Below, in pieces: positions 29,792 to 62,507 of a stretch of DNA of 64,000 bases (the first letter of the stretch is position 1; the number at the start of each line of letters is the position of its first letter). Position numbers and translations under genes: made by a program. Source of the DNA: an uncultured Desulfospira sp. (GTDB lineage Bacteria; Desulfobacterota; Desulfobacteria; Desulfobacterales; Desulfobacteraceae). Below the pieces are notes generated by a model. That model had not been told where the DNA came from. It did not search any database and saw only the letters and a program-made list of their open reading frames with translations. The DNA is taken from assembly GCA_963663165.1 (NCBI GenBank), contig OY760175.1, forward strand, positions 2,560,001 to 2,624,000, given 5' to 3'.

Positions 29792-30148
29792 TTACTGCCC
29801 TGCCGGCATGGGTCTGCCGACCATAGCAGCAAGAGCCGTCAATTTTGCTGCCTGAACCTGGGGTGCAGTATTTATTTGTTTCAAAAACAAAACACTATCC
29901 CGGAAGCCATAACCCTTGATTTTCATGACAAGGTCGATGGTATTAAAATTCTTTTCGCATCTGAAGCACCGGGCCAGGTTCGTGGCTGGATTTACAGCGG
30001 TTTGAAATTCATTGCACAAAGGGCATAGAAAACGAAAATAGCCATCCCTGATCTTGGATGGAATCTGTAAATGATCCCTGATCAGCATATCAACAGGGAT
30101 ATTGTTTCTCAGTTCAAATAATTGCCTGGATGAAAATCTGTTCTTCAA
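29792..30148 (-). CDS. Stand-alone DnaG-type zinc-ribbon (CHC2-like) protein
   Basis: CPLC..CFRC..NTIDLVM...F.DSV..L; AAGGAGGTG RBS, TTG start; paralog at 61530-61838. Confidence 0.8.
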   Translation of the reverse strand: MKNRFSSRQLFELRNNIPVDMLIRDHLQIPSKIRDGYFRFLCPLCNEFQTAVNPATNLARCFRCEKNFNTIDLVMKIKGYGFRDSVLFLKQINTAPQVQAAKLTALAAMVGRPMPAGQ

Positions 30149-30404
30149 AAGACACCTCCTTGTTTTTTAAATTTCAGGTGCCTTTTTTATATCATCGGCC
30201 AGAGCCGTCTGTCAGTTGCCTCTTAAACTGGAATGGGGATTACTTTGTTGATATCTACCTGTATTATCAGCGGATTACGCACATGATGCCTCTTAGAATT
30301 AAACCTCGATTAGTCTGTCAATATACCTTTACATTACAGTTAGTTATCCCAACCATGTCTCTTGAAACCAATACTCGATTAGTCGTTTATGCCAAGGGGA
30401 TATT

Positions 30405-30782
30405 TTATGGAAACCCCCGGATTATTTCCCTGCTGTAACCGATAATTTGGGTAACCAGGTATTGGATGACAATTGCCGGCTTGATTCCATATTCCGTTAT
30501 AATGACTTCCATTGGCAAAACCGGCTCTTTGCATTTTTGATATGAAAGAACAGAAAGACTCCCGGATGTTTGTTGCTCCTCAGCTTCTTCAAGCTTTTTT
30601 GCCAGGTAGTTATTTTTACAGACAGCTTTGTTTTTCCTGTTCCACTCTTCACATTGCCTCCGGTGAAGCTCATTTTGGCAAGCCGGGCTACATGTTTTCT
30701 GCCGTCCTTTTTGTCTTACATCAGGAGTGAACCATTTACGGCAAATAGAGCAAGGACGTTTTCCTCGTGAATTTTTTGCCAT
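30405..30782 (-). CDS. Cys-rich hypothetical protein
   Basis: CSICRKWFTPDVRQKGRQKTCSPAC; homolog at 61804-62343. Confidence 0.75.
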   Translation of the reverse strand: MAKNSRGKRPCSICRKWFTPDVRQKGRQKTCSPACQNELHRRQCEEWNRKNKAVCKNNYLAKKLEEAEEQQTSGSLSVLSYQKCKEPVLPMEVIITEYGIKPAIVIQYLVTQIIGYSREIIRGFP

Positions 30783-30844
30783 TATTTCTTCTCCAAGATT
30801 TGAATCAGGGAGATTTTATGTACCAAATTTTGAAGGATGCAGCA

Positions 30845-30951
30845 GCGGGGTCTGTCGGCGGGATAGGCGGGGTATGATTTTTATTTTATTTGCTGGGTAT
30901 AGCGGCGGGATATCTGCCCGTTACATTATTTCGCTATGAAACTGCGGGGTA
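30845..30951. repeat. Six GC(G/T)GG(G/A)T(A/C) boxes in the right end of element A
   Basis: Copies at 30845, 30858, 30867, 30892, 30905, 30944. Confidence 0.75.
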
Positions 30952-31126
30952 AGCGTTACACTTTTTGAATCTTACCACCCGCCACAATTCCATGGGGTGC
31001 CCCCTTTTCAGAATACATCCTTATCATTGAATTGATTTAAATTGCCATCACCCGCAGGCAAGTTACATGGGATTGCCCTGAAAAGCTCCGGAAGAAAAAA
31101 GCGGGTTTCCAAATATTCACCCATAT

Positions 31127-31222
31127 GTTATAAGAAAGTCTCACTAACAAGCTGAAAAGACTTTCATTTTTCGTTGTGGGCGATTCTTGGTTGGATAATC
31201 CAAGCCGTCCGTGACGGTTATA
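31127..31222 (-). repeat. TATAAC-bounded modular hairpin unit 3
   Basis: About 80% identical, inverted, to 22289-22383; same 90-bp period. Confidence 0.8.
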
Positions 31223-31257
31223 GAAAAAAAATCGTAAACAATCAAAAGGTGAACGAG

Positions 31258-34200
31258 ATGAAAAATCAATGTTTAAAGGCAATTGTGGTTTTTTTATCCC
31301 TCCTTCTTTTGTTGCTGAACGCTGCTGATACCGCCCAGATAACCATCATTTACGTTGACGCCGAAGCCACAGGAACCGGTACCGGAAAAAGCTGGGAAAA
31401 TGCTTATCCTTATTTGACGGATGCTTTAAATGCGGCAGCATCAGGCAATACCATTTACGTTGCCGAAGGGGTTTATTACCCGGATCAGTCCGCAGCCATT
31501 CCGAACGGCACCGGTCTTAGGACCGCTTCATTTTCCCTTCTGAACAATGTTACCATTTATGGCGGGTTTGACCCGTCGGTGGGAGTTGACACCCTGGCGG
31601 AACGAAGCTGGAAAAATTATAAAACATATCTTAGCGGCAATATCGGAGACATAAAATCTGCCAGTGACAACAGCTACCATGTGGTAAAAAACTCAAAAGA
31701 TGTTACCAGCACCGCCATTCTGGACGGGTTCATCATCGCCGCAGGCAATGCCAACGGCAGCAGCCTTACAAGTTCAGGCGGCGGCATGACCAATGAAAAT
31801 GCATCTCCCATCATTCGCAATTGTGTTTTTTCCCAGAACCAGGCATCAGGCCAGGGTGCCGGGATGTACAATATCTACCAGAGCGAGCCGTATCTTTTCA
31901 ATTGCGAATTTAATGCCAACACTTCCGGCAGCGGCGGCGGCGGAATGTATAATGACGGATCTTCCCCTGAGCTGGAAGCATGCACGTTTACCGGCAACCA
32001 GGCCTTAAGCGGTGCCGGTGTATACAACAACGGGTCAAGCCCGGTTTTAACCGGCACGGTGTTTACGGACAACAGCGCCGGCTACGGCGGCGGGGCCGTA
32101 TACAATTACAATGCATCCGCTCCCGTATTTTATAACTGCATATTTTCGGAAAATTTTGCCGCCTATGACGGCGGGGCCATTCATAATGCCTATAATTCTT
32201 CGTCCCTGGCCGTGAACTGCACCTTTACCGGCAACCTTCTGGACAGCACCAACAGCGGCCACGGCGGTGGCATATATAACCGATCAAATTCCAGGACCGA
32301 AATTGCCAATTCCATTCTCTGGGATGATGAGCCAGACGAACTCTATCCCACGGATTCCTTTACCGTCACCTATTCCGACATAGAAACCAGCACCGTTTTT
32401 CCAGGAACGGGCAACATGAACGTCTCCCCTCTTCTGGATGCAACGTTCCACCTGGACGAAGACTCACCGTGTATTGACGCCGGGAGCAATGATGCGGTGC
32501 CGGCCTTTCTTACCGTCGATTTCGAAGGTGACGGCCGGATTATCAACGGCGATGGGGATGATCCTGAGGCAGTCGTTGATATGGGCGCGGATGAATCGCC
32601 TTTTGTAATGGTCACCCATGATCTTGCCGTTGGCAGTTCCGCCGGCGGGTCGGTAACCCAGCCGGGAGAAGGAATTTTTTCATTTGACCATGAGCGCATC
32701 GTCGATCTGCTTGCCGTATCTGAAGGGGGGTACCGGTTTTTAAACTGGAGCGGCGATACCGGCCAGGTGGCCGGGATATTTTCTGCCCAGACCACCATTA
32801 CCATGGACGACAGCTACAGCATTACGGCCAATTTTGAACAGGATATTGATCCTGACCTGGTGGTCACCGATGTCTGGGAGGAAAACGGCGGCATCTGTTA
32901 CCAGCTTCATAATATTGGCGAGGCAACGGCCCTCAAAGGGCACTATACCAGGCTTGTGGTGAACAATAACACCGCAGCAGATGACCTGGTCGACAACGAG
33001 CTGCCGCCGGATGGAAGGATCAGCCGCTGCTTTCCCCAATACATCTGGGACTGCACCTCGTCTTCCGACGAGATAATGGTTTGTGCTGACGGGGCCGGGC
33101 AGATCACCGAAAGCGATGAAACAAACAACTGCCGCTCCGAGTCATGGCAATGTGACACCACGGCGCCCCTTATTACTGACCCGCCGGTCGTTTCCCAGGT
33201 GGACCCCTACACCGTGGACATCAAATGGGATACGGATTGCGACGCCGACAGCGTGGTCATGTTCGGCACATCAGCCGGCGTGTTCTCAGGACAGGCAGCG
33301 GACCAGCAGTCCAGCCAGAACCACCAGATTCGCCTGGAAAACCTTGCTGCGGGCACCACTTATCACTACCGGGTCCTGTCAACAGATGCCGGCGGCAACA
33401 CCATAGAAAGCAAAGACTTCTTTTTCCAGACCGCCCCCCTGGCAGACACAACCCCTCCGGTTGTCTCTAAATTAACGGCTGTAAAGGGAGACGGGGCACA
33501 GCTCTTTTACAAAGTCTTAGCACAGGTCACCGATGATACCGGCGTGGAACGGGTAGCGTTTTACCTGGATGGCACCCTTGTGGGGGTTGACTATTTAGAA
33601 CCCTTTGAATACAAACTGGCACCCGCGGATTTAGGGCTCAGCCGGGAGGACTTTTTTAAGGCGCACACCCTGACGGCGGTTGCCGTAAGTCATGCCGGCG
33701 TGGCCGGTATGGTTGATCTGCCCTTTGAGCCGGCCTATGAGTGTGCTGACATCAATATGGAAATGCAGGCCCCATATCCCGACGACACCTACTATATTGA
33801 TTACACCTCGGTTCCTTCTGGCACCACCATCCCTATCCGGGTCCGGGCCGCCATGACGGAACTGGACTGCCATTATTTCGGCATGTCCGGCCTTCCTCCC
33901 GGGGCCAGCAATTTCTTTTGTGATGAGATATACCTCCCGGTGACCGAAGTCCGTTTCTATGTCAATTCAGTGCTGATTGAAACGGTTACCCCTTCGGCAG
34001 CGGATGAATTCATTTTTGAGATTGACTGGGATATAAGCGGCAAAACCACCGGAACCTATTTCATCAGGGTGGACGCCATTGTGGATGATGAATGCCGCCA
34101 GACCATCACCAACACATTTGCCATTGAAAAAGGTGAGCCGGAGCTTGACGTCACCCGGGAAGTCACGCGCATAGGCAATTATTTTGAAATCCAGCTTCGC

Positions 34201-36924
34201 CTCCGGAACCGGGGGACAGCAACAGTCACCTTTGACCGGCTCGAAGATTCGGTTGACGGGTTTCAGCCCATCGAAAGAAGCGACAGCGACTATGATGTGG
34301 TCCCCAGCTGTAACAATGACGGCACCCATTGCGACGTTGAAATCGATTTTGCCGGCCGCTACTATGACCTTGCAGCCGGAGACAGCAAATGGGTTTCCTA
34401 TCTGGCCGTACCAATCCTGCACCCGCCCGATGAATCCGTGGATTACCGTATCGGCGCCACCCCGGTCCGGGTTGTTGATTATTATGAGATGCACCCCCAT
34501 GAATTCGACAGGCCGTGCGCTTTAACCCAAGATGATTATACCCTGTCAAGTGAAGTCAACCGGGCCATCAGGAATTCCGACTATCTGATCATCACCAATC
34601 CCGACAAGCTGTTTTCCACCAGCGCCGATGCGGCCGGTGTCAACAGCCTGCTGTCCGCCATGGCCGAACTGGCCAGCCTGCGCAACGCAATTTTGGGCTA
34701 TCTTTACGGGTCTGATTCCAATGATACCGGCTGGATCAAGGAGTGTATCCGGACATGGGGAACCCCCATGCAGGGTATGGACGGCGTTGATGAGCATTAC
34801 CTGTCAAACGGCTACCTGCTTCTGGTCGGAGAAGTTGAAATCATTCCCTCGTTCACCAAAACCGTTAAAGATAAATGGTGGTTCATCACCATTGCAACCT
34901 ATCATATTCACTTTACCGATATGCCTTACGGAGACACCAACGGCCGCATTGACCCCGAACTGAGTGTGGCCCGGATCATCGGTGATGACCCTTCCGAGCT
35001 GATCATCCCCATCCAGGCAAGCATCAATGTGATCAACGGCGAGCCCGGCTTTGAATTTGACCGGTCCCATGCACTCATCGTGAGCGGCAGCGGTGATGGT
35101 GTGTCTTCATTTGAAGGAAACCTGGATGATGTTGAAGATATCCTTGAGGATGAGTTTACCGTCACCAAAAGGAAAAAAAGGCGGGTTGAAGACTCCGGCG
35201 GCAACATCACCACAGAATTCAAGCTCTATGATGCCAACAAGGACCACTTGTTTTACCGGGATCACTGCAATCCCACGGCCTGGTCAGGCGTGATCGGCAC
35301 AAGCGATTTTACCGGTTCTGATCCGGTGGATTTCGAAGATGCCAAGCCCTTTGCCTTTGCCTGCTGCTGCCAGGCCGGCCAGTATGAGGATGACTCGGAA
35401 GATGCCGCTGACCGCACCAATATCGCCGAGTCTTTTTTACAGCATGGGGCGCCGTCCTATATCGGGGCAACGGAAAATTCATTCAGGGGACAGAACAACA
35501 GCGCGGCCAAATGGTTTTACAACCACTGGGTCAATACCGGCAAAACAGTGGGCCAGACCTTCAGGGAACTCAAAGTTCACCTTGGCGATTTCCAGGGCGA
35601 CTACTGGAGTTATGAGTATAACCTGTACGGCGATCCCAAATATGGCGGCAGCGGTGTGGCGGCAGCGTCTCTGGCTTCAAAGGCAATGACACTGCCGGAA
35701 TCCCCCTATGGGCTGGTGGTGCCTGATTATGAAGTCAAATCACTCAACGGCGAGGACCATGTGAGCATTCCCGGCGGCAATATGATTCTGGCCGAAGACA
35801 AGCCCGCAGTTCCCTATTACAAGGTCAGTATTGAATTTCCTGAAGGATATGCCGTCCATGACGTCACCTTGGAAGAGCGTTCGGAACCGATCACCACCAC
35901 CGGGCTTAACATCCCGCTTTCCGAGATGGGCCTGGATAATTCAACCGCAGGCAGCACCGCTTCCGCCGCAGGGGGAGAAGAGTGGTGGCCTCCCCAGGAG
36001 GCGGTTTTTGAGTATCAGTTTGAAACAAGGCCTGACAGGACATCGGTGCTGACCATCACCGTTTTCCCGTTTTACTACAATGGCCTGACCACCGATGCAA
36101 AATTCTACAAAACCTACACCTTTAACATTGACTATGATTCGGGCGGGGTGGGCATTGCCCTGCTTTCCACAGAAAAGGAAAATTATGCTCAAGGGGAAAT
36201 CGTTCAGGCAGACCTGTGGCTCACCAGCGCGGAAGACCCCCAGGATGTGATTGTCGAGGTTCTGGTCAAAGAGGAAAGTTCAGATGAGGTGGTTGACGGC
36301 CTGCTTTTGCGCACCTTAAGCCAGGTCACACAAACCGCATATTTTGCCCTTGAATGGGACAGCAGCAATTTTCCTGCCGGGGCCTATTATCTTGAAGCCA
36401 ATATCAGGGACAGCTCAGGCCATCTCATAGACCGGCGGAATAAATCCATCAGTACGGGGATGGCCTCCATAGCCATTACAGATTTTACGGCGACACCGGA
36501 TGCCCCGTATATCAATACCGGGCTTGAATTTAAAAATATTGGCAGCGTTGATGTTTCCGGCAAAGCGATCATTATTATACAGGACAGCCAGGGGGCCGTT
36601 GTTGCCGAATTTCCCCATGATTTTGAAGATCTGGCCCCATGGGGGAGCCTGAGCTTTGCTGACAGCTGGGATCCCTCCGGGGCCAGTGGCCAGACATATC
36701 ATTTCCAGGCATATGTTCTATATGACAGCGGGTGTTCTGAAGTCCGCAGCCTGTCGGTTCCCTTATGCCTGGACCTGAATGAATTTGCCCAAAGCTTTGG
36801 TTCCGCATCCGGCCAGGGCCATTATGATGCTGCCTTTGATTTTGACCGGGATGGCGATGTGGACGGTAAAGACCTGTCCGTCATAAACATCTACAGTCCC
36901 CTGCGGACATGGGGGTGTGAGTAG
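31258..36924 (+). CDS. Giant secreted mosaic protein: beta-helix repeats, InlB-B-like, CARDB, FN3, Ig, C25 (gingipain-like) peptidase, C25-propeptide-like and dockerin-like domains
   Basis: Signal peptide from ATG 31258; GGGMYN repeats; SPCIDAG..DMGADE; DYLIIT, YLLLVG..IP, TD.PYGD..PELSVARI, YNLYGDP; DFDRDGDVDGKDL. Confidence 0.8.
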   Translation: MKNQCLKAIVVFLSLLLLLLNAADTAQITIIYVDAEATGTGTGKSWENAYPYLTDALNAAASGNTIYVAEGVYYPDQSAAIPNGTGLRTASFSLLNNVTIYGGFDPSVGVDTLAERSWKNYKTYLSGNIGDIKSASDNSYHVVKNSKDVTSTAILDGFIIAAGNANGSSLTSSGGGMTNENASPIIRNCVFSQNQASGQGAGMYNIYQSEPYLFNCEFNANTSGSGGGGMYNDGSSPELEACTFTGNQALSGAGVYNNGSSPVLTGTVFTDNSAGYGGGAVYNYNASAPVFYNCIFSENFAAYDGGAIHNAYNSSSLAVNCTFTGNLLDSTNSGHGGGIYNRSNSRTEIANSILWDDEPDELYPTDSFTVTYSDIETSTVFPGTGNMNVSPLLDATFHLDEDSPCIDAGSNDAVPAFLTVDFEGDGRIINGDGDDPEAVVDMGADESPFVMVTHDLAVGSSAGGSVTQPGEGIFSFDHERIVDLLAVSEGGYRFLNWSGDTGQVAGIFSAQTTITMDDSYSITANFEQDIDPDLVVTDVWEENGGICYQLHNIGEATALKGHYTRLVVNNNTAADDLVDNELPPDGRISRCFPQYIWDCTSSSDEIMVCADGAGQITESDETNNCRSESWQCDTTAPLITDPPVVSQVDPYTVDIKWDTDCDADSVVMFGTSAGVFSGQAADQQSSQNHQIRLENLAAGTTYHYRVLSTDAGGNTIESKDFFFQTAPLADTTPPVVSKLTAVKGDGAQLFYKVLAQVTDDTGVERVAFYLDGTLVGVDYLEPFEYKLAPADLGLSREDFFKAHTLTAVAVSHAGVAGMVDLPFEPAYECADINMEMQAPYPDDTYYIDYTSVPSGTTIPIRVRAAMTELDCHYFGMSGLPPGASNFFCDEIYLPVTEVRFYVNSVLIETVTPSAADEFIFEIDWDISGKTTGTYFIRVDAIVDDECRQTITNTFAIEKGEPELDVTREVTRIGNYFEIQLRLRNRGTATVTFDRLEDSVDGFQPIERSDSDYDVVPSCNNDGTHCDVEIDFAGRYYDLAAGDSKWVSYLAVPILHPPDESVDYRIGATPVRVVDYYEMHPHEFDRPCALTQDDYTLSSEVNRAIRNSDYLIITNPDKLFSTSADAAGVNSLLSAMAELASLRNAILGYLYGSDSNDTGWIKECIRTWGTPMQGMDGVDEHYLSNGYLLLVGEVEIIPSFTKTVKDKWWFITIATYHIHFTDMPYGDTNGRIDPELSVARIIGDDPSELIIPIQASINVINGEPGFEFDRSHALIVSGSGDGVSSFEGNLDDVEDILEDEFTVTKRKKRRVEDSGGNITTEFKLYDANKDHLFYRDHCNPTAWSGVIGTSDFTGSDPVDFEDAKPFAFACCCQAGQYEDDSEDAADRTNIAESFLQHGAPSYIGATENSFRGQNNSAAKWFYNHWVNTGKTVGQTFRELKVHLGDFQGDYWSYEYNLYGDPKYGGSGVAAASLASKAMTLPESPYGLVVPDYEVKSLNGEDHVSIPGGNMILAEDKPAVPYYKVSIEFPEGYAVHDVTLEERSEPITTTGLNIPLSEMGLDNSTAGSTASAAGGEEWWPPQEAVFEYQFETRPDRTSVLTITVFPFYYNGLTTDAKFYKTYTFNIDYDSGGVGIALLSTEKENYAQGEIVQADLWLTSAEDPQDVIVEVLVKEESSDEVVDGLLLRTLSQVTQTAYFALEWDSSNFPAGAYYLEANIRDSSGHLIDRRNKSISTGMASIAITDFTATPDAPYINTGLEFKNIGSVDVSGKAIIIIQDSQGAVVAEFPHDFEDLAPWGSLSFADSWDPSGASGQTYHFQAYVLYDSGCSEVRSLSVPLCLDLNEFAQSFGSASGQGHYDAAFDFDRDGDVDGKDLSVINIYSPLRTWGCE

Positions 36925-36981
36925 GCGTTCTTTCGCCTCAATTTTGCTGCACCCTTTTTGGCGGACCTTCTGCGGGGAATG

Positions 36982-38238
36982 CTAACTTAAGATTTTATCG
37001 GCAAAGCTTTCAACAATATGGTCCAGGCGGGTCCATCCCTTTTTATTGAGCCTGAAATGGCGGCCTGCCTTGGGGTGGGGTGTGGTGGACGCCGTGCAGA
37101 CTTCTCCCAAATGCTGATCTTCAATGTGCCGGATGACGGGGGCGAACCGGGTTTGAAAGACCTGGCTGAACTTAAGGTTAAAGGCGTCCATGTCAATCCC
37201 CTCCCGGGTCCTTAAGCCCAGCATGATCCATTCAAGTTCCTGCTGGCGCAGGGTCAGGGTTTCGATTTGCCCCGGGGGCAGTTCACCGGCTTCAAGGCGG
37301 CTCAGGTAACCGGTAAGGCCCGGAAGGTTCCAGGACCTTTGAAGGGCATGGTCCGGCCCCTCTAAAAAGGAGTGGGCCGCCGGTCCCAGTCCCAGATAAG
37401 GGGTAAAGTTCCAATAGTTTGAATTGTGGCGGGACCGGTCCTCAGGCCGGCGAAAAAAATTAGAAATCTCATAATGGGCAAACCCGGCCTGCTCAATCCA
37501 GTCAGATCCTTTCAGGAAAAACTGGATTTTCTTTTCCGAGGGGCCGTCCCCGGAAAGGCAAATCCGGTTTTCCGCCGCCATTTTGCCCAGCGGCGTATCC
37601 GGCTCAACCGTGAGCATGTAACAGGACAGATGGGAAGGCCCAAAGGAAAATGCGGTGTCAAGGTCTGTTTTCCAGGTGTCTATGGTTTCATCGGGAAGGG
37701 CAAACATCAGATCAATGCCGATATTTTCAAACCCGGCTTTTCTTGCCTGTTCAATGGCCTGAACCGATTGGCGCTCCGAATGGATCCGGGTTAAAAATTT
37801 AAGTTTATCCCGGTTAAAGGACTGGACCCCTAAAGAAAGGCGGTTAATGCCGGCCGATTTCAGTCCCGTAAGGCTGGTCCGGTCCAGGGTGCCGGGGTTG
37901 GCCTCAAGGGTGATCTCTGCTTTTCGGGATATGCCGCAATACCGGTCAATGGATTCTAAAATCCGGGCAACGGCCTGAACCGGCAGCACCGAGGGCGTCC
38001 CCCCGCCCAAATATACGGTTTCAACCTTTGGGGACCGCATTTTGGACCGGGCAGCGCCGTAAAGCCCCGGATCCTGGCATTTCAACCGGATTTCCGTTTC
38101 AAGGGCCGACACAAATGCGGGGATTTTATTTAAATCCGGGGTGGAATAAAAATCACAGTAAATGCATTTCCGGATGCAGAACGGGACATGAATATAAATG
38201 GAAACCGGTTCAGACAAAGCGTTCCATGAGTTCATCAA
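36982..38238 (-). CDS. hemW: Radical SAM heme chaperone HemW (HemN-like); start uncertain
   Basis: YIHVPFC..KC.YCDF, GGGTPS, EANP, YEISNF, HNSNYW. Confidence 0.88.
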   Translation of the reverse strand: MMNSWNALSEPVSIYIHVPFCIRKCIYCDFYSTPDLNKIPAFVSALETEIRLKCQDPGLYGAARSKMRSPKVETVYLGGGTPSVLPVQAVARILESIDRYCGISRKAEITLEANPGTLDRTSLTGLKSAGINRLSLGVQSFNRDKLKFLTRIHSERQSVQAIEQARKAGFENIGIDLMFALPDETIDTWKTDLDTAFSFGPSHLSCYMLTVEPDTPLGKMAAENRICLSGDGPSEKKIQFFLKGSDWIEQAGFAHYEISNFFRRPEDRSRHNSNYWNFTPYLGLGPAAHSFLEGPDHALQRSWNLPGLTGYLSRLEAGELPPGQIETLTLRQQELEWIMLGLRTREGIDMDAFNLKFSQVFQTRFAPVIRHIEDQHLGEVCTASTTPHPKAGRHFRLNKKGWTRLDHIVESFADKILS

Positions 38239-53764: not shown

Positions 53765-54418
53765 ATGTTTAAATTTTTATTTAGAAAAGAGCACCGGGTT
53801 GAGAAACTGATATTCAACTATCTTGATGCGTATCGCCTTGTTTTGGAAAGTTTCAGTAAAGCCCTGGTGTCATGCATTACCAGCAGCCAGTGCGAAGAAG
53901 AGTTTGATTTTCTCATGGAACAGACCCATAAATACGAGTCCAGGGCGGATGATATCAAGGACAAAATCAACAACCTCATGTTCAGTAAAGCCTTAATCCC
54001 GGATTCCAGAGGGGATATCATGACCCTGCTCATCGCTTTGGACAAAATCCCCCATATCGTGGAGCGAACCCTTTTTATCATCCGGTACCAGGGGATAGTT
54101 ATTCCCCCCATATTTTTTGAAGACCTGGAGACCATGATCCAGATCAGTGTTGAATCATGCCATCTGCTTTCCAGGCAGGTTGAGCTGTTTATCAAAAATG
54201 AGGAGGGCACCCGGTCCATTTTGGGGACCATTGACACCAATGAAAGCCGGTGCGACCATATTGAGCGCAGAATGATATCCCAGCTGTTCAGCTCAGACAT
54301 CGATCCGTTTTGCAAGCTTCAGTTAAAAGAACTGATACTGATTGTCGGAGATCTGTCGGATCAGGCCGATAAGGTTTCCAAACTGGTGAACATTCTGACC
54401 CTGAAAAGGAGGGTTTGA
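53765..54418 (+). CDS. DUF47 (PhoU-like) phosphate transport regulator
   Basis: ES.ADD and ES.CD repeats, R.DI; directly upstream of PiT. Confidence 0.85.
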   Translation: MFKFLFRKEHRVEKLIFNYLDAYRLVLESFSKALVSCITSSQCEEEFDFLMEQTHKYESRADDIKDKINNLMFSKALIPDSRGDIMTLLIALDKIPHIVERTLFIIRYQGIVIPPIFFEDLETMIQISVESCHLLSRQVELFIKNEEGTRSILGTIDTNESRCDHIERRMISQLFSSDIDPFCKLQLKELILIVGDLSDQADKVSKLVNILTLKRRV

Positions 54419-55356
54419 TGGTTTCGCTCCTGGGCGGCATATTCTTAGGCTGGTCCCTGGGAGCCAATGATGCCTCCAACATCATCGGCACTGCCGTATC
54501 CTCAAAGATGCTGCGCTTCTGGTATGCCGCCGGCCTGGCCGCCCTGTTCTGCATTCTGGGGGCACTGATTTCCGGGAAAGCCGGCATTGAGACTTTAAAA
54601 GGCCTGACATCCCTTAATATGCACCAGGCCGTCATCTCATCGGTTTCTGCGGCCATAACCGTTACGGCCATGACCATTTTCGGACTGCCCGTGTCCACGT
54701 CCCAATCCGTGGTGGGCGCCATCATCGGCATGGGCATTCTGAACCACGAGCTGAACGGGGCGGGCCTTGGAAAGGTCGTCATCTGCTGGTTTGGAACACC
54801 CGTGGGCGGACTTCTGATCACCCTGATGCTGTATAAATGCCTGGCCTTTTTTTACAACCAGCTTCCCATATCCCTGTTTAATTCAGACCGTCTGCTCAGG
54901 GGAGGGTTGGTTTTGTCGGCGGCCTACGGGGCATATGTCCTCGGGGCCAACAATGTCGCCAATGTAACCGCTGTTTTTGTCAGTGCCGGAATGTTGTCGG
55001 TATCCATGGCCGCGCTCATCGGGGGCACCAGCATTGCCCTGGGAATTCTGACCTACAGCAAGCCGGTGGTGGCGACCGTGGGAAGCAAACTGGTCAACCT
55101 GGATCCTTTTTCAGCCCTGGTCGTGTCCCTTTCCCTTGCCATCACCATCCACATATACACCGTGGTGGGGGTACCGGTATCCAGTTCACAGGCCGTCATC
55201 GGCAGCGTCCTTGGCATCGGGGTGGTCAAAGGGGCCCGGACCGTCCGCCTCAAGACATTGAGCCGGATCGTCGTGGCCTGGTTTTTCACCCCCATGGTGG
55301 CCTGTTTGATTGCCTTGTTCATTACATTTGTTTCAAGACTTCGCTACATAGGGTAA
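54418..55356 (+). CDS. PiT-family inorganic phosphate transporter
   Basis: GANDASN, GANNVAN, PVSTSQ, PVSSSQ. Confidence 0.92.
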   Translation: MVSLLGGIFLGWSLGANDASNIIGTAVSSKMLRFWYAAGLAALFCILGALISGKAGIETLKGLTSLNMHQAVISSVSAAITVTAMTIFGLPVSTSQSVVGAIIGMGILNHELNGAGLGKVVICWFGTPVGGLLITLMLYKCLAFFYNQLPISLFNSDRLLRGGLVLSAAYGAYVLGANNVANVTAVFVSAGMLSVSMAALIGGTSIALGILTYSKPVVATVGSKLVNLDPFSALVVSLSLAITIHIYTVVGVPVSSSQAVIGSVLGIGVVKGARTVRLKTLSRIVVAWFFTPMVACLIALFITFVSRLRYIG

Positions 55357-55390
55357 CATATATGAAACCAAAAACTTTGGGAAAGCCGCA

Positions 55391-56935
55391 GTGGAAACTC
55401 AGGTTTTAATCATAGGCGCCGGCTGTACCGGCACCGGCATTGCCAGGGACCTGGCCTTACGGGGAATCAACTGTATTCTCATTGACCAAAAAGATATCAA
55501 TGCCGGGGCGTCCGGGGCCAACCACGGCCTGCTCCATTCCGGGGCCAGATACCTGTCCAAGGACGGGGAGACCGCGGCAGAGTGCCGGGACGAAAACCGG
55601 CTGTTAAAGCGCCTGGCCCCCCAGTGCATTGAAGACACCGGCGGCCTGTTTGTGGCCACGGCCCAGGATGATGATCAGTATATTGCCGATTTTGAGCAGC
55701 TGGCCGGACAATACCATCTGCCCTGCACCCGTGTCAGCCCTGAGGAGGCCCTGGAAAAAGAACCCTGTCTTGCACCGGACATCAAGGCCGCCTTTGAAGT
55801 CGAAGATGCGGTGGTGGATCCTTTTAAACTCAGCCTGGACAATGCCGCCCATGCCCAGTCCCTGGGTACCCGGATACTGACAAACACCCAAATTGAGGGG
55901 TTTGACCTTCACAAGGGCCGGATCCAGGCGGCCCGGGTGGTCAATACCCGGACCGGGGAACCCCTTGCCATTCAGGCCCTGGAATTTGTCAATGCCGCCG
56001 GCGCCTGGGCCGACTGCGTTTCTGCCATGGCCGGTGCCCACATTCCCATGAGCTATTCAAAAGGCGCTTTGCTCATTACCCAGAGCCGCATCAGCCAGCG
56101 GGTGATCAACCGGCTGCGCCCCCCGTCAGACGGCGATATCCTGGTGCCCGGCGGCACCGTCTCCATTATCGGCACCACCTCAGTCACCATCCCATCATTA
56201 GACGACATCCGGCCCACCCGAGAGGAGGTGGACACCATTATCAGGGAAGGTTCCATCATGGTGCCCAAACTTGCCACCACCGGCTACATCCGGGCTTATG
56301 CCGGGGTACGTCCCCTGGTGGGCGCATCCGGGAAAGGCCTTGGCCGGAACATTTCCAGAAATTACACTTTAAAAACCCATGAAGCTGACGGGCTTGAGAA
56401 CCTGACCACCATCACCGGCGGCAAACTGACCACCTTTCGGCTGATGGCGGAAAAAGCCTCGGACATTGTGGCCCGCCGCCTGAAAAACCCCAATCCATGC
56501 CTGACCGCCATACAGCCCCTGCCCTGCAGCGCCAAGGGGGAGTGGACCGAACCCGGGTATTCCGGCCGGGTCTGGATGAAAAAGCCGGAACCCCGGGACA
56601 CGCTGATCTGCGAATGCGAGATGGTGTCTGAAGAAGCCGTGGACCAGATGGTGGAAAACCTAAAAAATGAAGGGACCGAGCCCACCTTAGAGGAAATCGG
56701 ACGGCGCAGCCGGATCGGCAAAGGCCCCTGCCAGGGCAGTTTCTGCTCCTTTCGACTGGCCGCCTACCTTTACCGGAAAGGGCATTTGTCCGGAACCCAG
56801 GGAATCGGCCAGGTCAGGGCCTTTGTAAACGAACGCTGGAAAGGCGTCATGCCCCTGGTCAGGGACAAGGAGCTTGCAAGAATCGAACTTCAGGAAGCCT
56901 TTTTATGCGGCCTGTTCGGAATGGAGGAACCATGA
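55391..56935 (+). CDS. glpA: Anaerobic glycerol-3-phosphate dehydrogenase subunit A
   Basis: GAGCTG, GASGANHGLLHSGARY, GGKLTT, ICECE..GPCQGSFC. Confidence 0.93.
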   Translation: METQVLIIGAGCTGTGIARDLALRGINCILIDQKDINAGASGANHGLLHSGARYLSKDGETAAECRDENRLLKRLAPQCIEDTGGLFVATAQDDDQYIADFEQLAGQYHLPCTRVSPEEALEKEPCLAPDIKAAFEVEDAVVDPFKLSLDNAAHAQSLGTRILTNTQIEGFDLHKGRIQAARVVNTRTGEPLAIQALEFVNAAGAWADCVSAMAGAHIPMSYSKGALLITQSRISQRVINRLRPPSDGDILVPGGTVSIIGTTSVTIPSLDDIRPTREEVDTIIREGSIMVPKLATTGYIRAYAGVRPLVGASGKGLGRNISRNYTLKTHEADGLENLTTITGGKLTTFRLMAEKASDIVARRLKNPNPCLTAIQPLPCSAKGEWTEPGYSGRVWMKKPEPRDTLICECEMVSEEAVDQMVENLKNEGTEPTLEEIGRRSRIGKGPCQGSFCSFRLAAYLYRKGHLSGTQGIGQVRAFVNERWKGVMPLVRDKELARIELQEAFLCGLFGMEEP

Positions 56936-58218
56936 CATCCCCGACACCGGAACCAGACCTTACCCACTGCACCCTGGCCGTCATCGGATCGGGAACCGCC
57001 GGTATGGCCGCCGCCATCTTTGCCGCCCAAAAAGGCCTTTCAACGGTCCTGGTGGGGCAACCGGCACAACTTTCTTTCTCCTCGGGCTGCCTGGATCTGT
57101 TTGCCTGCATCCCGGGAAAGCCCGCCCAGTGGTTTGACGATCCTTTTAAAGGGATTGCCGCGCTGATTAAACAGAACCCGGGCCATCCCTATGCCAAAGT
57201 TTCCAGAAAAGAGATTGAAACCGGTTTTAAACAATTTATCCAATTTATGGAAATGGCCGGGATCAGCTTTTCATGCACCCCGGATCAAAATCAGAAGATT
57301 ATTACCCCGGCCGGAACCTTAAAATCCACCCTTTGCGTCCCTGCATCCATGGCCGCCGGAGCCCGGGCACTGGCCCAAAAAGAGCGGATACTCATCGCTG
57401 ATATTCCAGGGCTTAAAGGATTTGGCGCCCTGCAGATGGCCGATACTTTAAAACTGACTCATCCGGCGGTCACCAGTGTTTCCATTGAATTTCCAGGCAG
57501 ACAGAACCAGGGCGACCTCATGTGCGAACGTTTAGGGTGGGACCTGGACACCCCGCAGGTGGTGGACCAGTTTATCGAAAGCCTTGTCCCCCATGTCTCA
57601 TCCTGCGACACTGTGGGCCTGCCCGCTATCCTGGGGGTTCACCGGTTTGAGGCGTTAAGGGAAAAAATTGAACAGGGTCTTGGCCGGGCCGTATTTGAAA
57701 TCCCCACCCTGTCCCCTTCCGTTACCGGAATGCGCACCTGGGCCGCCTTTCAGGATCAAATACGCAACACCCAATTCCGCCAATTCCAGGACCTGGTGAA
57801 AACCGTCACCATAGACAACAGCCAAGGATTTTCCTTTAAGGTTAAAAACGGGGACAAACTGACGGTCATCCGTTCCAAATACCTGATTCTGGCCACAGGC
57901 CGGTTTTTAGGCCGGGGGCTGACAGCGGACGCCTCAGGCCGGATCAAAGAGAGCCTTTTCAACCTGCCGGTATCACAGCCCCGGGACCGCTCCGGCTGGT
58001 TTGAAGCTGATTTTTTCAACCCGGGCGGTCATCCGGTAAACCGGGCCGGCATTGAAACCGACGAAAACTTCAGGCCCCTGGATCAGGACGGAAACTGTTT
58101 CCACCCCAACCTTTATGCTGCAGGTGCCATCCTGGCCCACCAGGACTGGAAACGGGAAAAATCCGGCTCCGGCATCTCCATTGCTTCAGCCTTTAAGGCG
58201 GTCTCCCGGATGGATTGA
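56932..58218 (+). CDS. glpB: Anaerobic glycerol-3-phosphate dehydrogenase subunit B
   Basis: GSGTAG, SSGCLD, EIPTLSPS..G.R, LATGRF, SGSGIS. Confidence 0.9.
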   Translation: MTSPTPEPDLTHCTLAVIGSGTAGMAAAIFAAQKGLSTVLVGQPAQLSFSSGCLDLFACIPGKPAQWFDDPFKGIAALIKQNPGHPYAKVSRKEIETGFKQFIQFMEMAGISFSCTPDQNQKIITPAGTLKSTLCVPASMAAGARALAQKERILIADIPGLKGFGALQMADTLKLTHPAVTSVSIEFPGRQNQGDLMCERLGWDLDTPQVVDQFIESLVPHVSSCDTVGLPAILGVHRFEALREKIEQGLGRAVFEIPTLSPSVTGMRTWAAFQDQIRNTQFRQFQDLVKTVTIDNSQGFSFKVKNGDKLTVIRSKYLILATGRFLGRGLTADASGRIKESLFNLPVSQPRDRSGWFEADFFNPGGHPVNRAGIETDENFRPLDQDGNCFHPNLYAAGAILAHQDWKREKSGSGISIASAFKAVSRMD

Positions 58219-58603
58219 TTTTTAGATCTGCCTTCCCGGCGCATCCGGCCGCAATACACCTGCTATTGAATGCTGATTTGAAATTGACCTGAGCGAAAAA
58301 TGATCCCATGAGGCCCCAGTCAATTTTATTGGTCTATAAAATTGATTTTGGTTTTTTCGGGTCAGGCACAACATATTGGGGTTGAATGGTTTTCGAAAAA
58401 CCCCGGACTTATAGACTTATGTTGCGAGTGGTCATAACTCATTGATTTTTATGATAAATTCAAACACCCGCTGTGCAAATCAATATCGACTTTTAAATTC
58501 AATGAGTTACAGTGGATTATAAAATTTTTCATAATCACTGGCAACATAATTTTTTGTTTTACTACATACCGCTTTAAAGATAGCAAAAGGCTACCTCAAT
58601 GGA

Positions 58604-59623
58604 TCATAAACTGTCAAGCCAGGCAAGGATTTCAGCATTATTTTTCCAGTCGATCAGCTCATCAATCTTCTTGTCTTGATTCATTTTCGATTGCATATAT
58701 TCAATGAGCTTATCCTGGATTTCCCGTTTTTTTGACAAGTCCAGCTGCAAATAAGCCATTGTTGATTCAACGCTTTGATGGCCCAGGCGATTTTTGATAT
58801 CCGATACGGGGGCCCCTGAAGTCACCATATTAACCGCACAAGAATGTCTGAAGCAATGGGCCGGACTCAGACCTTTCAACCGTTTTTCCGGCAATGCTTT
58901 TGTCAGATATCTTCGGCAAATTTTGTTGATACCATGCCGGGTCATTCCCCGCCTCCGCTGATTAATGAACAGCCGGTGTGCAAATAATGGGATGGGGGCT
59001 ACTCTATGATTGGTGATATAGTCTGAGATCAGTGATGCGGTTTTGGACCACAGGTTGATCAACCTGTATCGGTTCCCCTTGCCCAGGACCGCAATGGTTT
59101 CGTTTTCAGGATCAAAATAATCAAATTCCAGTGTGGCAATCTCGCTGGCTCTGGCACCGGAGTCGTAAAGCAGATGGAGAATGGTAAAATCTCTCATCCC
59201 TTCCTTCTTTTTTAAATCGACGACACTGAAAATTTTCATTATTTCTTCTGGGTGTAAAAATCCCATCACCTTCTTTTGAGCCCTTTTCTGAGGGATGGTC
59301 AAAAGAGCTTCTGCGACTCGTTTTTTGTCCGGATGCATGAATCGGATCATCTTGGCCAGCGACTTGATCACGGCCAAGCGGTTGTTCCGGGTCTGGACGG
59401 TATTTTTTCGGTCTGTTTCCAAATGATTCAGGAAGCCCAGAACAGCGTCAGGTGTTAAATGGTCAATTTTCAAGGATTTGATTTTGATCGAATGATAATC
59501 CGCCAAAAAATGCAGAAACAAAGAAAAAGCCTGCTGGTAAGTTTTAATGCTTTGTTCGCTGGTCCCTTTTATATGGGGCAGGTATTCATAAAAATACTGA
59601 TGCAGGCAGGTGGATAATCTCAT
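58604..59623 (-). CDS. Tyrosine recombinase (RitC-like)
   Basis: TRNNRL, GARASE, GKGNR, HCFRHS, LGH..Y. Confidence 0.92.
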   Translation of the reverse strand: MRLSTCLHQYFYEYLPHIKGTSEQSIKTYQQAFSLFLHFLADYHSIKIKSLKIDHLTPDAVLGFLNHLETDRKNTVQTRNNRLAVIKSLAKMIRFMHPDKKRVAEALLTIPQKRAQKKVMGFLHPEEIMKIFSVVDLKKKEGMRDFTILHLLYDSGARASEIATLEFDYFDPENETIAVLGKGNRYRLINLWSKTASLISDYITNHRVAPIPLFAHRLFINQRRRGMTRHGINKICRRYLTKALPEKRLKGLSPAHCFRHSCAVNMVTSGAPVSDIKNRLGHQSVESTMAYLQLDLSKKREIQDKLIEYMQSKMNQDKKIDELIDWKNNAEILAWLDSL

Positions 59624-60594
59624 ACATCCTCACTTCTCAACATCGAAAAATCAAGCATTTGGCGGCGATGCTCTGCATCCAGAACTCTCAGATATTTGGT
59701 CGTATACTTGTATTCGCTGTGTCCCATGTAAGCGGCCAGCACCGGCAACGCATTTTGGGCAGACTTGCCCTGTTGTTTAATTCGTTTCAGTGTATTTACA
59801 GCAAAGGAATGACGAAGTGAGTGCCGTGTCGGGTTGCTGAAATTTGTAGCACCAATAATTTTTTTGTGCTGATCAAGGTTAATGGCCGAAATCGCTTTTT
59901 TAAATTTTCGATCCATGAAATGGCGGGGTAACTTTCCGCCATCTCCTTTGATCAATAATAAAGGATGCACATCGGCAATAAGTAAAAGCCGTCGCACGTT
60001 CAAAAAATTGTCGATTTCACAAGAAACGGCCTTGGGTATTGGGATCAGTCGGTCTTTTTTAAATTTTGTTTTCTCAATATAGATTGTCCTTTCTTCAGAC
60101 CTGTAGTTCTTTTGCAGCAAATTGAACGTCTCCGATATTCTCAAGCCGCACCGGGCCATCAGCAGAAAAGAGATATAACCGCTAAAATCGGTGAGGTAAT
60201 ATTTTTTTGTTTTTCGCATCTGTTTTATGACAGTTTTCAATAAAAGATCCGTTTCTTTCGGAGAAAAAATAAAAGGGATAATCTGATTTTCCGGCAGCTC
60301 AGCAATCTCCTGTATGGGATTTGTCAAAATCAGGTCTCTGCGGATCAGATATTTGAAAAACATTTGAAACGTTCGAAAAAATGTATTGATGGAACGGTTT
60401 TCACAATTGAGGTCTGAACGGAGTCGGATGAAAAACAACGGATCAAATGATGTCCAGGTCACATCCCTTTGGGCAACATACCGATCCAGCAACCGAAGGC
60501 TGCACAGCAGCATTTTATCTGAATATCCCAATTGAAGACGGTATTCGATAAAATCCTCTATATATTCGCTAAGAAAGCTTTTAAAGCGTTTCAC
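59620..60594 (-). CDS. Tyrosine recombinase (RitB-like)
   Basis: PFIFS, GLRISE, TKF.K.R, HSLRHSFAV, LP.L..YMGH..Y. Confidence 0.92.
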   Translation of the reverse strand: MKRFKSFLSEYIEDFIEYRLQLGYSDKMLLCSLRLLDRYVAQRDVTWTSFDPLFFIRLRSDLNCENRSINTFFRTFQMFFKYLIRRDLILTNPIQEIAELPENQIIPFIFSPKETDLLLKTVIKQMRKTKKYYLTDFSGYISFLLMARCGLRISETFNLLQKNYRSEERTIYIEKTKFKKDRLIPIPKAVSCEIDNFLNVRRLLLIADVHPLLLIKGDGGKLPRHFMDRKFKKAISAINLDQHKKIIGATNFSNPTRHSLRHSFAVNTLKRIKQQGKSAQNALPVLAAYMGHSEYKYTTKYLRVLDAEHRRQMLDFSMLRSEDV

Positions 60595-61540
60595 CGAGGA
60601 TAACCTCCCGCATCAGGTTGATATGGATGCTCAGATATTTTTGCGTTGCTCCGATGCTTTTATGGCCCATCATTTCTTTTATCTCATAAATGGAAGCACC
60701 GGACTCCAGCAAATTCTGGGCGTAAGAATGCCTCAGCCAATATGTGTTTGACTCAAGATTGCTATCAGCCATAAATTCTCTTATATGACGGGGGATGTCG
60801 CTCCTGCCAACCGGTTTATAAGGCGGCACTAACTGTAAAAATAAGGTTCGAGATTGGGTTTCTGGTCTCCCGCCGATAATATAAGCGGTGATGGCCTTGA
60901 TCACATTGTCCGGCACAGGAAGATGAGCAGGGCTGTAATTTTTTCTCGAACGAATAAAAATCTCTTTTTGCCTGAAAGAGATGTCATCCAGGGTAAGTGA
61001 GCTGATTTCTCCGGGCCTCAATCCCAAAAAATATGCCAGGTGCATAGCCGCATAAATACGGAGATCTTTTGCTGTTGACAAATTCATGAGCTTAAACATT
61101 TTTTGCACTTCATGGGGGCGCAAGAATTTCGGTGGTTTTGACCGAGCAAACTCAGGAGGGCTCACCACCAGCACAGAGATGTCTTTTTTGATATACCCGC
61201 CTCGGTAGAGGTGCTTGAGAAACTGCCGAAGATGTGACCGGTTAGATCTGGCTGCCCCGGCAGAATAATTGGTGTTGTAACGGGCTAAAAATTGATCAAC
61301 CTGATGAATGGATATTTCATTTAAAAGAATGCCTGACGTTTGAAGAAAAAAATGAAAACTCATCAGTATTTGCCTCATTGCGCCGATATTGTTTTCGTTA
61401 CGAAGCTGGTGTTTGTAATAATTCAGATACCCATGAAAAATTTCCGGCAACGGAAGGCCGAGTGGCGGCATTATTTCTGCCGGCACTCGACATCGACGAT
61501 AAGACTGTATATTGAGTTCTGTTCCCAAATCAGACGTCAT
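60581..61540 (-). CDS. Tyrosine recombinase (RitA-like)
   Basis: GLRPGE, YWLRHSYA (first His of HxxR replaced by Tyr), MGH..TQKY. Confidence 0.9.
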   Translation of the reverse strand: MTSDLGTELNIQSYRRCRVPAEIMPPLGLPLPEIFHGYLNYYKHQLRNENNIGAMRQILMSFHFFLQTSGILLNEISIHQVDQFLARYNTNYSAGAARSNRSHLRQFLKHLYRGGYIKKDISVLVVSPPEFARSKPPKFLRPHEVQKMFKLMNLSTAKDLRIYAAMHLAYFLGLRPGEISSLTLDDISFRQKEIFIRSRKNYSPAHLPVPDNVIKAITAYIIGGRPETQSRTLFLQLVPPYKPVGRSDIPRHIREFMADSNLESNTYWLRHSYAQNLLESGASIYEIKEMMGHKSIGATQKYLSIHINLMREVILGETL

Positions 61541-61838
61541 GATCAGGTGCTCTTGTATTCAAAATAATCTGAAGATATTTGACACTGTCAACAAAACCAA
61601 TGTGCCGACAGGCCATTACCAGATCTATGGTATTAAAATTCTTTTCGCATCGAAAACACCTGCTCAGGTTCGTCTTAGGATTAACTGCAGTCTGAAATTC
61701 ATTGCACAAGGGACACAGAAAACGGAAAACCCCTTCACTTATTTTGGCTGGAATACCCAGTTCCGTTTCGATCAACACATGAATGGGTATTGAATTTCGT
61801 AATCTATAAAGTTCCTTTGAAGAAAATCGTTTGCCCAT
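61530..61838 (-). CDS. Stand-alone DnaG-type zinc-ribbon (CHC2-like) protein
   Basis: 36/38 aa identical to 29792-30148 across the Zn ribbon. Confidence 0.8.
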   Translation of the reverse strand: MGKRFSSKELYRLRNSIPIHVLIETELGIPAKISEGVFRFLCPLCNEFQTAVNPKTNLSRCFRCEKNFNTIDLVMACRHIGFVDSVKYLQIILNTRAPDHDV

Positions 61839-62343
61839 GCTGACACCTCTTCTTTTTGGTTAGTTCCTTCATAATATCTGGTGTCAATTTTACCGTCTCC
61901 TGGTCCGTGGCATCAATAATCTCTTGTAACGCATTTTTGTTAAGGAGGGTGTCAAACCCAATAAAGACAAGGGTCTTGGCCGATATTAAATCTTGTAACG
62001 GTATTTGAATTAAATCCATCGAAGATCCTTTACCAGCAATGGTTTTGGCAGTTTTTATCTCTTGTAACGTATTTTCAGTTAAGGATGGCTTTCCCGGAGG
62101 CTTTGTTCGCTTCCAGTAACCAGGATTGCTTTGGCGCCATTCCTGAACACGGACCACATTCTCAGGCCCTGAAAAATAATCCTGATTCTTTGGCTTATTC
62201 AGCCATTTTTGCTGGCTGTGTTTTTTACTGGCAATTTTGCATTCGGGTTCGTTACAAAATTTTTGCCGTTTCAAATGACGGGGATCTGGCTTGAATAAAT
62301 TTTGGCAGTTTTTACACCTGCGCTGTCGGATTTGTTTTTTCAT
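61804..62343 (-). CDS. Cys-rich hypothetical protein with LQ(E/D) repeats
   Basis: CKNCQNLFKPDPRHLKRQKFCNEPEC; AAGGAGGT RBS. Confidence 0.78.
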   Translation of the reverse strand: MKKQIRQRRCKNCQNLFKPDPRHLKRQKFCNEPECKIASKKHSQQKWLNKPKNQDYFSGPENVVRVQEWRQSNPGYWKRTKPPGKPSLTENTLQEIKTAKTIAGKGSSMDLIQIPLQDLISAKTLVFIGFDTLLNKNALQEIIDATDQETVKLTPDIMKELTKKKRCQHGQTIFFKGTL

Positions 62344-62384
62344 AGACCTGATACCTCCTTAGATCTATGATCGGATGGATGGTG

Positions 62385-62448
62385 GCGGGGTAGTATTTTT
62401 TCAAAATATGGCGGGGTATAGCGGGGTCCAGCTGGGTCGGGCGGGGTA
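62385..62448. repeat. Five GC(G/T)GGGT(A/C) boxes in the right end of element B
   Basis: Copies at 62385, 62411, 62421, 62431, 62441; four in exact 10-bp phase. Confidence 0.8.
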
Positions 62449-62507
62449 GAACACGCAACAAAAAAAACTCGCTACATAAATAGACAGATTGCACACTTAA
62501 AAAATCA

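Follow-up and report, generated by a model that had tools for sequence, protein, structure and literature searches.

A Zn-ribbon or winged-helix protein and its paired box array are shared by mobile elements with unrelated recombinases

We analyzed a 64,000-nucleotide (nt) stretch of the genome of an uncultured Desulfospira sp. (the window; GenBank assembly GCA_963663165.1, contig OY760175.1, positions 2,560,001 to 2,624,000), in which two mobile elements, a DDE+AAA transposon (element A) and an extended RIT element (element B), begin with the same kind of leader, i.e., an array of short boxes, a gene for a Cys4 protein (Cys, slot 1) and a gene for a stand-alone DnaG-type Zn ribbon (ZN, slot 2). 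The order of parts is array, Cys, ZN, 185-amino acid (aa) gene, DDE and AAA in A, and array, Cys, ZN, RitA, RitB and RitC in B. In relatives, a winged-helix gene (wHTH) takes the place of ZN, and the arrays were found to co-vary with the slot-2 protein, in a double dissociation between ZN and wHTH, and not with the recombinase. The first-pass annotation of the window had described GCGGGGT clusters just inside one terminus of each element (30977 and 62479), followed by a Cys-rich open reading frame (ORF) and a Zn ribbon, and both boxes and ORFs were located at these places. ZnA and ZnB are 66% identical over 92 aa, and 36 of the 38 residues of their core are the same. The claim that the shared leader is followed by unrelated machinery held for DDE+AAA as against three tyrosine recombinases, although in A a 185-aa gene comes directly after ZN and the DDE gene is split.

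The box is better described as TA(C/T)C(C/T)(C/A/T)GCC, read inward from the element end, than as the GCGGGGT first noted. For array counts, 223 loci were reduced to 118 at 90% identity, and 64 of these were counted, the other 54 having too little upstream DNA or being last-gene types. At least three boxes within 130 bp were present in 40/44 ZN-led and 0/20 wHTH-led leaders, as compared with 7/3000 random genome windows; by eye, three of the four ZN leaders without an array seem interrupted by other DNA and one lies at a contig edge. Arrays of the TACCCCGC type were detected in 36/40 ZN leaders and 0/24 wHTH leaders, and TAATTC-type arrays in 16/24 wHTH leaders and 0/40 ZN leaders (local shuffles, 0.3); a Fisher test on the 44 ZN-led and 20 wHTH-led leaders overstates the association because of kinship. 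The wHTH array has the same place and layout as the ZN array, i.e., two boxes, an A-rich spacer and two boxes. Its motifs (TAATTC and the variant TTCTTC) were picked by eye on loci L193-L222, and a RitC-anchored set served as the sole held-out test. Of the 20 held-out wHTH loci, 12 carried either wHTH array in the leader; a ZN array of their own was present in none, the single ZN array observed belonging to a nested element. A tie of the boxes to the Cys ORF or to the recombinase was rejected, since array type tracks slot 2. Array spacing is phased, at 8-13 bp and at 24-27 bp across the A-tract, and the recombinase repeats are directly adjacent to the arrays or interspersed with them. An IHF-like site in the spacer was looked for by eye only, and conservation across lineages was not seen.

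Arrays were not confined to leaders. IS21 elements that have ZN last carry an inverted array downstream of it, within the right end; at least three inward boxes were present in 8 of 10 such loci and an outward array in none, one of the remaining two having no downstream DNA and the other 2 boxes. Plasmid pHRM2a carries arrays at both element ends, one ExeA-type element has ZN as its last gene and the array at the left end, and one wHTH placed last (locus L237) has its array inverted at the right end. The array thus reads inward at either end or at both, in an orientation set by the terminus and not by transcription. Given inverted far-end arrays and a distant ZN, the cis array therefore appears to act on the DNA end, without the need of an adjacent protein gene. 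That boxes always precede the genes was accordingly true of most ZN-led leaders (40/44) and untrue of IS21 elements with ZN last. The earlier idea of a fixed unit of boxes and two Zn proteins had to be abandoned, as Cys is found just as well beside wHTH and another type of array, and ZN together with its boxes may occupy the other end of the element.

For ZN, 2283 relatives of comparable length were counted, with 547 clusters at 50% identity, the largest Atlas cluster being mostly from Thermodesulfobacteriota; from 317 and from at least 590 relatives, the 80 closest were retained for our surveys, with distant members under-sampled. Amongst the 130 distinct contexts obtained from 187 ZN loci, ZN stands ahead of RIT recombinases in 50, ahead of a DDE+AAA core in 50, last after IS21 istB in 12 and after an ExeA-type ATPase in 4; the script gave no core label to 14, mostly short contigs. 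ZN therefore sits in elements of four unrelated cores, consistent with the recombinase-independent module that had been proposed. On a quick ZN tree (119 rows, 92 columns), 6 changes of core label are required, the minimum being 4. Tree incongruence with the recombinases, which had been proposed as a check, was found on a RitA tree (59 extended and 2 canonical RITs), where leaders are swapped: slot 2 changes 7 times, at least four of them on starred branches, and Cys type 16 times. The RitC-anchored sample (n=30) comprised 19 wHTH-led loci, 2 ZN-led loci, 1 with Cys only and 8 that were truncated or broken. Leader genes were present in all 22 RitC-anchored loci of this order whose leader could be read, so that RITs of this order seem as a rule to carry a leader. 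Two proteobacterial plasmid RITs had no leader.

Element B is mobile, with four copies in the source genome that differ by 0-1 nt, each flanked on both sides by an identical 6-bp core (GTCTAT at 58411-58416 and 62480-62485 in the window); together with the many other RIT contexts of ZN, this discounts the possibility that B is a one-off chimera. Eleven A-type elements are present in the same genome. They fall into three subfamilies, of which two share a Cys type and the third has a different one, and ZN and boxes occur in all of them. Instead of ZN, wHTH is found in two more RIT families (4 and 8 copies) and in an IS21 family of five copies; both of these wHTH RIT leaders are without boxes, as are the wHTH IS21 ends displayed. 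Within the 6.74-Mb genome there are only 14 same-strand clusters of at least three CCCCGC hexamers in 130 bp, 9 of which lie within these elements. ZN was found in 1/72,556 plasmids, and ZN relatives were confirmed in 0/46 pattern matches on viral contigs. No Rfam match was obtained at E up to 1 in six element loci.

Both slot-2 folds appear related to replication proteins. ZN aligns with the whole DnaG Zn domain (1d0q, E 7.5e-6), which mediates template recognition according to the available text of PMC6163395. ZnB and ZnA are 102 and 118 aa long with no further domain; TOPRIM polymerase domains, helicase-binding domains and Cys-His-Cys-Cys ligands were not found in them. Their ligands are four invariant cysteines in 60 aligned sequences, in contrast to the Cys-His-Cys-Cys of host DnaG (PF01807). 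Encoded inside mobile elements, ZN is by its sequence best described as a Cys4 version of the DnaG zinc domain and not as a primase. In a related element, a RepB' primase is the last gene, where ExeA-type elements have ZN. For wHTH, the five top Foldseek matches of the predicted model (pLDDT 86) were plasmid initiators of the RepA_N type (E 1.6e-3 to 5e-3), with DnaD lower, so that the proposed relation to RepA_N carries weak scores; Pfam assigned HTH_36, not RepA_N, to 28 of 38 members, and a wHTH profile search of Protein Data Bank (PDB) sequences found nothing. RepA_N is described as binding four Rep boxes in the accessible part of PMC5703833. The wHTH arrangement of four direct-repeat boxes and A+T-rich DNA is similar to those of RepA_N initiators and of the DnaD N-terminal domain; unlike RepA_N, wHTH has no RepA C-terminal domain, ends in a short tail and sits inside a transposon end.

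Despite their unrelated folds, ZN and wHTH in many cases have a C-terminal linker followed by a short helix, [IVL]G[DE][IV]L. A loose pattern for this tail matched 79/128 ZN tails (shuffles, 11.6) and 27/52 wHTH tails (shuffles, 2.0). Host DciA begins with such a helix, and the loose pattern was present in 20 of 28 DciA N-termini of the same order. A DciA-derived profile flagged 55/128 ZN and 19/50 wHTH tails, compared with 1/98 slot-1 tails, 0/81 Rit ends, 2/51 other core ends and 20/300 host protein ends. The DnaB linker helix also resembles the tail motif; in a scoring with a 95th-percentile cut-off, 18/23 DnaB linker helices, 56/128 ZN tails and 24/52 wHTH tails came out above it with the DciA-derived profile. 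As outlined in the available portion of a 2026 structural report (PMC13696075), the DciA N-terminal helix takes the place of the DnaB linker helix, opening the ring. The tails may thereby point, only indirectly, to helicase loading rather than priming, and both DciA and PriA are encoded in the source genome. Compared with the loaders DciA, DnaC and lambda P, a helix of the DciA-N-terminus or DnaB-linker type is seen in about 40% of slot-2 tails; it is fused, however, to a putative sequence-specific DNA-binding domain, no KH-like (PF05258) match was obtained in ZN or wHTH, there is no AAA domain, and the helix is absent in B. Slot 2 is accordingly not to be equated with DciA, as far as its sequence indicates.

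With somewhat less than even confidence, we favour the reading that the array is an end-proximal mini-origin that would recruit the host helicase for replicative transposition, slot 2 being the initiator or helicase loader. The slot-2 protein, ZN or wHTH, would bind its own array beside the recombinase sites, as suggested by their co-variation, and binding would open the A-rich spacer or keep it open. The C-terminal helix, to judge from its likeness to the DciA N-terminus, would then mimic the DnaB linker helix and load host DnaB pointing inward, whereupon synthesis through the element could convert the one-strand intermediate of the recombinase into a circle or a replicative copy. Such a scheme would serve DDE, IS21 and tyrosine recombinases alike, with the Cys4 protein as an accessory, and in tail-less versions such as B, slot 2 would bind the end or open it, with host DciA or PriA doing the loading. 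The stronger proposal, that four unrelated recombinase classes carry interchangeable sequence-targeted helicase loaders, made of a Zn ribbon or RepA_N-like domain and a DciA-mimic helix that wedges DnaB open, is possible, and we regard it as more doubtful than not. Were it true, each element would have a one-shot origin for replicative transposition, slot 2 would represent a new class of transposon accessory factor, and RIT elements would move by a replication-coupled route.

Several observations weigh against the mini-origin reading. Contrasts between array and slot 2 that are independent on the tree number only 3; all three agree (p 0.25), and kinship limits the statistics. One of the 30 RitC-anchored loci (L264) keeps Cys and a wHTH-type array with no slot-2 gene, and canonical RITs move without any leader. 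Neither circles nor replication intermediates were observed; the four sequencing runs covered gave only contigs and no joints, and so say little about circles. The two slot-2 proteins of the window agree least with the model: ZnB is without a tail, the ZnA tail has a low score and a convincing wedge is seen in none of the B proteins, yet B exists in four near-identical copies despite the missing helix. Amongst close ZN loci only 14/57 tails pass, the motif is a short amphipathic helix that could bind another partner, and the 20 N-termini behind the DciA profile had been selected with the loose pattern itself, a bias towards matching. No RepA_N match of the wHTH model reaches E 1e-3, and VIA puts RepA_N (Z 8.3, root-mean-square deviation 8.4, 93 aligned) level with CRP-family and other winged-helix proteins. 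The repeats in B's Cys protein (type Cys1b) also occur beside wHTH proteins that bear the motif and hence do not compensate for a tail-less ZN.

The main rival, which we consider unlikely but by no means negligible, is that the array is an operator or activator site at the element promoter and slot 2 the transcription factor of the operon, its tail contacting RNA polymerase or mediating oligomers. Leader-type arrays occupy the position that a promoter needs. In DDE/Cys1a leaders a -10-like hexamer lies mostly 26-33 nt past the last box (range 24-40, 17 leaders) with no good -35, as in activator-dependent promoters, and in RIT/Cys1b leaders it lies 12-18 nt past the last box. Autoregulation would account both for recombinase independence and for tail-less ZN, and it gains from the tie between winged-helix regulators and RepA_N in VIA. 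On the other hand, the right-end arrays of IS21 run opposite to transcription and have neither a gene in front of them nor a consistent -10, leaving only a circle-junction promoter possible; the -10 distance varies between lineages, the sequences compared are related, neither leader (A, B) has a sigma-70 consensus promoter on its coding strand, and the DciA likeness of the tail is unaccounted for. Plasmid initiators often also regulate their own promoter, and the models considered here are not mutually exclusive.

A less probable explanation is that slot 2 bends or wraps the end to aid assembly of the recombination complex or to set its direction, in the manner of the Mu enhancer or Xis. The abutting of arrays and recombinase repeats, the phased spacing and the placement of arrays at either end or both, always inward, would fit such an architectural role. 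Factors of this kind usually suit a single recombinase, whereas here one protein-array pair serves four unrelated cores, with the swaps on starred RitA-tree branches described above; the replication-type folds and the tail would also be left unaccounted for. Priming alone, the lead of the first-pass annotation, has ZN marking the box on single-stranded DNA and working in trans with host DnaG. This is quite improbable: the whole-domain alignment of ZN with the template-recognition part of DnaG, the strong strand asymmetry of the arrays, the RepB' primase in the same last slot of a related element and the tail-less ZnB are compatible with it, but it does not cover the wHTH alternative, the ligands of ZN differ from those of the host, and a repeated box of 8-9 bp is unlike a trinucleotide priming signal. 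We give almost no credence to the notion that the boxes serve the host as Chi- or KOPS-like signals or form a G-quadruplex, with the genes as passengers. The G-rich strand of B does have four GGGG runs and one GGG box; against this, the array type switches with the element's own slot-2 gene, box sites keep a flanking A in 93-98% of cases and some variants interrupt the G run. In the source genome, CCCCGC is not over-represented (3158 seen, 3079 expected) and shows no leading-strand bias (45%), and on these counts a Chi/KOPS reading was rejected.

Amongst described systems, canonical RITs are given as about 3.5 kb with three genes only in the available text of PMC3414803. Element B shares with them three overlapping tyrosine recombinase genes and several identical copies per genome, and it has terminal inverted repeats, here imperfect ones of 12 bp. 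It differs in being 4.06 kb, with an array and two leader genes, and all four copies have the same 4063 bp; B is therefore an extended variant and not a canonical RIT, predicted to work like one while departing from the three-genes-only feature. SE, GInt and Tn554 elements resemble the RITs described here in having several recombinases, accessory genes and a 6-bp spacer, but their accessory genes are family-specific, whereas the accessory module here is common to DDE elements. IS21 (IstA and IstB) is related through the module, as surveyed IS21 cores carry the same slot-1 and slot-2 genes. Element A is nevertheless, by sequence, not an IS21 element: no rve, IS21 or other Pfam transposase model matches its transposase, which is thus not IstA, and tblastn with it gave no cross-match to other transposases of the source genome among the matches listed. 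It appears to resemble Mu A/B-type modules, with TG...CA ends, repeated end sites, a DDE protein and an AAA ATPase. It differs from Mu in its 6-bp duplication, insertion-sequence size and three accessory genes, and in an array matched to a separate small protein instead of the transposase. Mu itself has an enhancer inside one end and transposes replicatively.

We rate the protein-array module as lying outside described systems. It was not described in the accessible portions of the literature searched (including PMC8138268, PMC5737581, PMC2864759 and PMC9912922); the original RIT surveys (Ricker 2013, Van Houdt 2009) and ISfinder fall outside this search and may mention extended RITs. Within the same portions, no description was found of an IS21 element with a Zn ribbon, wHTH or box array, nor of the boxes, RIT link and tail helix of the module. 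Even if its role is regulatory, that literature has no description of a protein-operator cassette exchanged between DDE, IS21 and tyrosine-recombinase elements. Replication fork passage through copy-out or replicative transposons is known for few systems, where it is credited to host restart proteins (IS911, Mu). Copy-out has been proposed for IS21 (PMC11208146) and for tyrosine-recombinase SE elements (PMC10214605), and by 2023 laboratory work had not yet reproduced RIT transposition, in each case as stated in the available text of the source (PMC10214605 for the latter). The module offers several handles, i.e., a defined box with its candidate cognate protein, a second protein-box pair that replaces the first in nature, and a short tail that can be mutated, and pHRM2a, a plasmid of a cultured strain, makes it testable.

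Slot 1 is less readily placed. CysA and CysB are 36% identical over their first 52 aa (E 3e-6 in a small all-against-all search), and all Cys types share four invariant cysteines and a basic helix. The predicted Cys4 domain (pLDDT 85) gave no clear fold (Foldseek E at least 2; VIA Z up to 2.6, with YacG at Z 2.4), weak matches in PDB and Pfam profile searches, and only unnamed clusters above 0.9 in the Atlas. The Cys1b repeats were considered as a replacement for the missing ZN tail and rejected on the grounds given above. Other Zn proteins replace Cys4 in L174, L095, L273 and L189, with weak DUF6431 matches in L174 and L095, and with two Zn genes and two arrays in L273. Cys2-type genes (L188:100-360, L190, L192 and others) have conserved upstream hairpins whichever slot-2 gene follows, with no Rfam match. 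At L135:1121-3370, Cys2 and ZN with boxes precede a 749-aa protein with only a weak homeodomain-like match, possibly a fifth kind of core.

The coordinates of both elements are given in Table 1.

Table 1. Features of elements A and B in the window (box positions refer to the + strand pattern GC(G/A/T)(G/A)GGT)
Feature	Position	Strand	Remarks
Element B	58417..62479	(-)	extended RIT, 4063 bp between terminal repeats
B box array	62385..62447	(-)	5 boxes (62385, 62411, 62421, 62431, 62441), spacing 10, 10, 10, 26; abuts second terminal repeat
B slot 1, Cys4 protein type Cys1b	61804..62343	(-)	three 23-aa LQ[DE] repeats (69-bp DNA repeats, 61908-62075)
B slot 2 (ZnB), stand-alone DnaG-type Zn ribbon	61530..61838	(-)	PF01807 above cut-off; no C-terminal helix
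RitA tyrosine recombinase	60581..61540	(-)	PF00589
RitB tyrosine recombinase	59620..60594	(-)	PF00589
RitC tyrosine recombinase	58604..59623	(-)	PF00589
Element A	22423..30977	(-)	DDE+AAA transposon, TG...CA ends, 6-bp target duplication; 8555 bp here
A left terminal inverted repeat	30954..30977	(-)	partner at 22423-22446
A box array	30845..30950	(-)	6 boxes (30845, 30858, 30867, 30892, 30905, 30944), TACCCCGC-like when read inward
A slot 1, Cys4 protein type Cys1a	30405..30782	(-)	CxxC..F..Q..C..C then basic helix; no Pfam match
A slot 2 (ZnA), stand-alone DnaG-type Zn ribbon, Cys4	29792..30148	(-)	PF01807 above cut-off
185-aa helical protein, DDE-family-specific	29232..29789	(-)	third gene, next after ZN
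A DDE transposase, N-terminal piece	29197..29239	(-)	severed by nested element; from sequence
A DDE transposase, remainder	23363..24990	(-)	weak match to phrog_310 transposase, E 8.5e-6
A AAA ATPase	22704..23366	(-)	AAA_22; phrog_296 DNA transposition protein, E 1e-10
Nested foreign transposon, not part of A	24991..29196	(+)	4206 bp, 3-bp duplication; splits the DDE gene of A

The three Rit proteins of B are encoded by adjacent overlapping ORFs, RitC matching plasmid RIT trios at 31-34%. All three have the R motif and the GH..Y motif; the HxxR pattern is present in RitB and RitC, and RitA reads YWLRHS. Each end of B has a 12-bp imperfect terminal repeat and an inner second copy, compared with the repeats of about 28-34 bp in RITs. 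In 3 of the 16 RIT copies of the source genome the left and right 6-bp cores differ (5569605 (+), 2718306 (+), 6121009 (-)), and in one of these the family core is confined to the right side, which resembles the footprint of SE and Tn554.

In element A, inner TGTAACG repeats lie at 30916-30934 and 22533-22551; the outermost box falls between the transposase-end repeats, and box pairs are separated by an A-rich spacer. ZnA ends in a conserved helix, LxxLAxxIG[RK]PM, a variant of the tail. Two stretches of the 185-aa protein score highly with the DciA/linker-helix profile and may lie inside a folded domain as part of its fold. An intact copy of A, 4346 bp, is present elsewhere in the source genome (about 3.98 Mb). 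At both copies the duplicated 6-bp target includes GCGGG, which is also the core of their own box (22417-22422 and 30978-30983 in the window); these are two cases only, and a related six-copy family shows no such target preference. The nested transposon, with 11 copies in the source genome, encodes a Zn protein, an rve transposase, an AAA ATPase and, as its last gene, a RepB'-type primase; in one of these copies the first gene is interrupted by a B element, which sits at a native GTCTAT core. Between CysA and ZnA, the non-coding stretch 30286-30384 contains two 30-nt repeats 69 bp apart, and the 69-bp repeats of B are at the matching place, within CysB. Outside both ends of A lies a 100-nt inverted repeat, 80% complementary (22284-22383, 31128-31227), possibly a small repeat family or an older element.

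Elsewhere in the window, a 1916-aa multi-domain protein, probably secreted, is encoded beside the left end of A (31174-36924). An intact DDE_5 (PF13546) transposase gene, unrelated to A, occupies 18600-19889, and a tyrosine-recombinase-like ORF, apparently in two frames near its start, leaves the window at about 63530-64000 (+). Finally, a near-perfect 25-bp palindrome with a 3-nt loop is located at 21710-21762.

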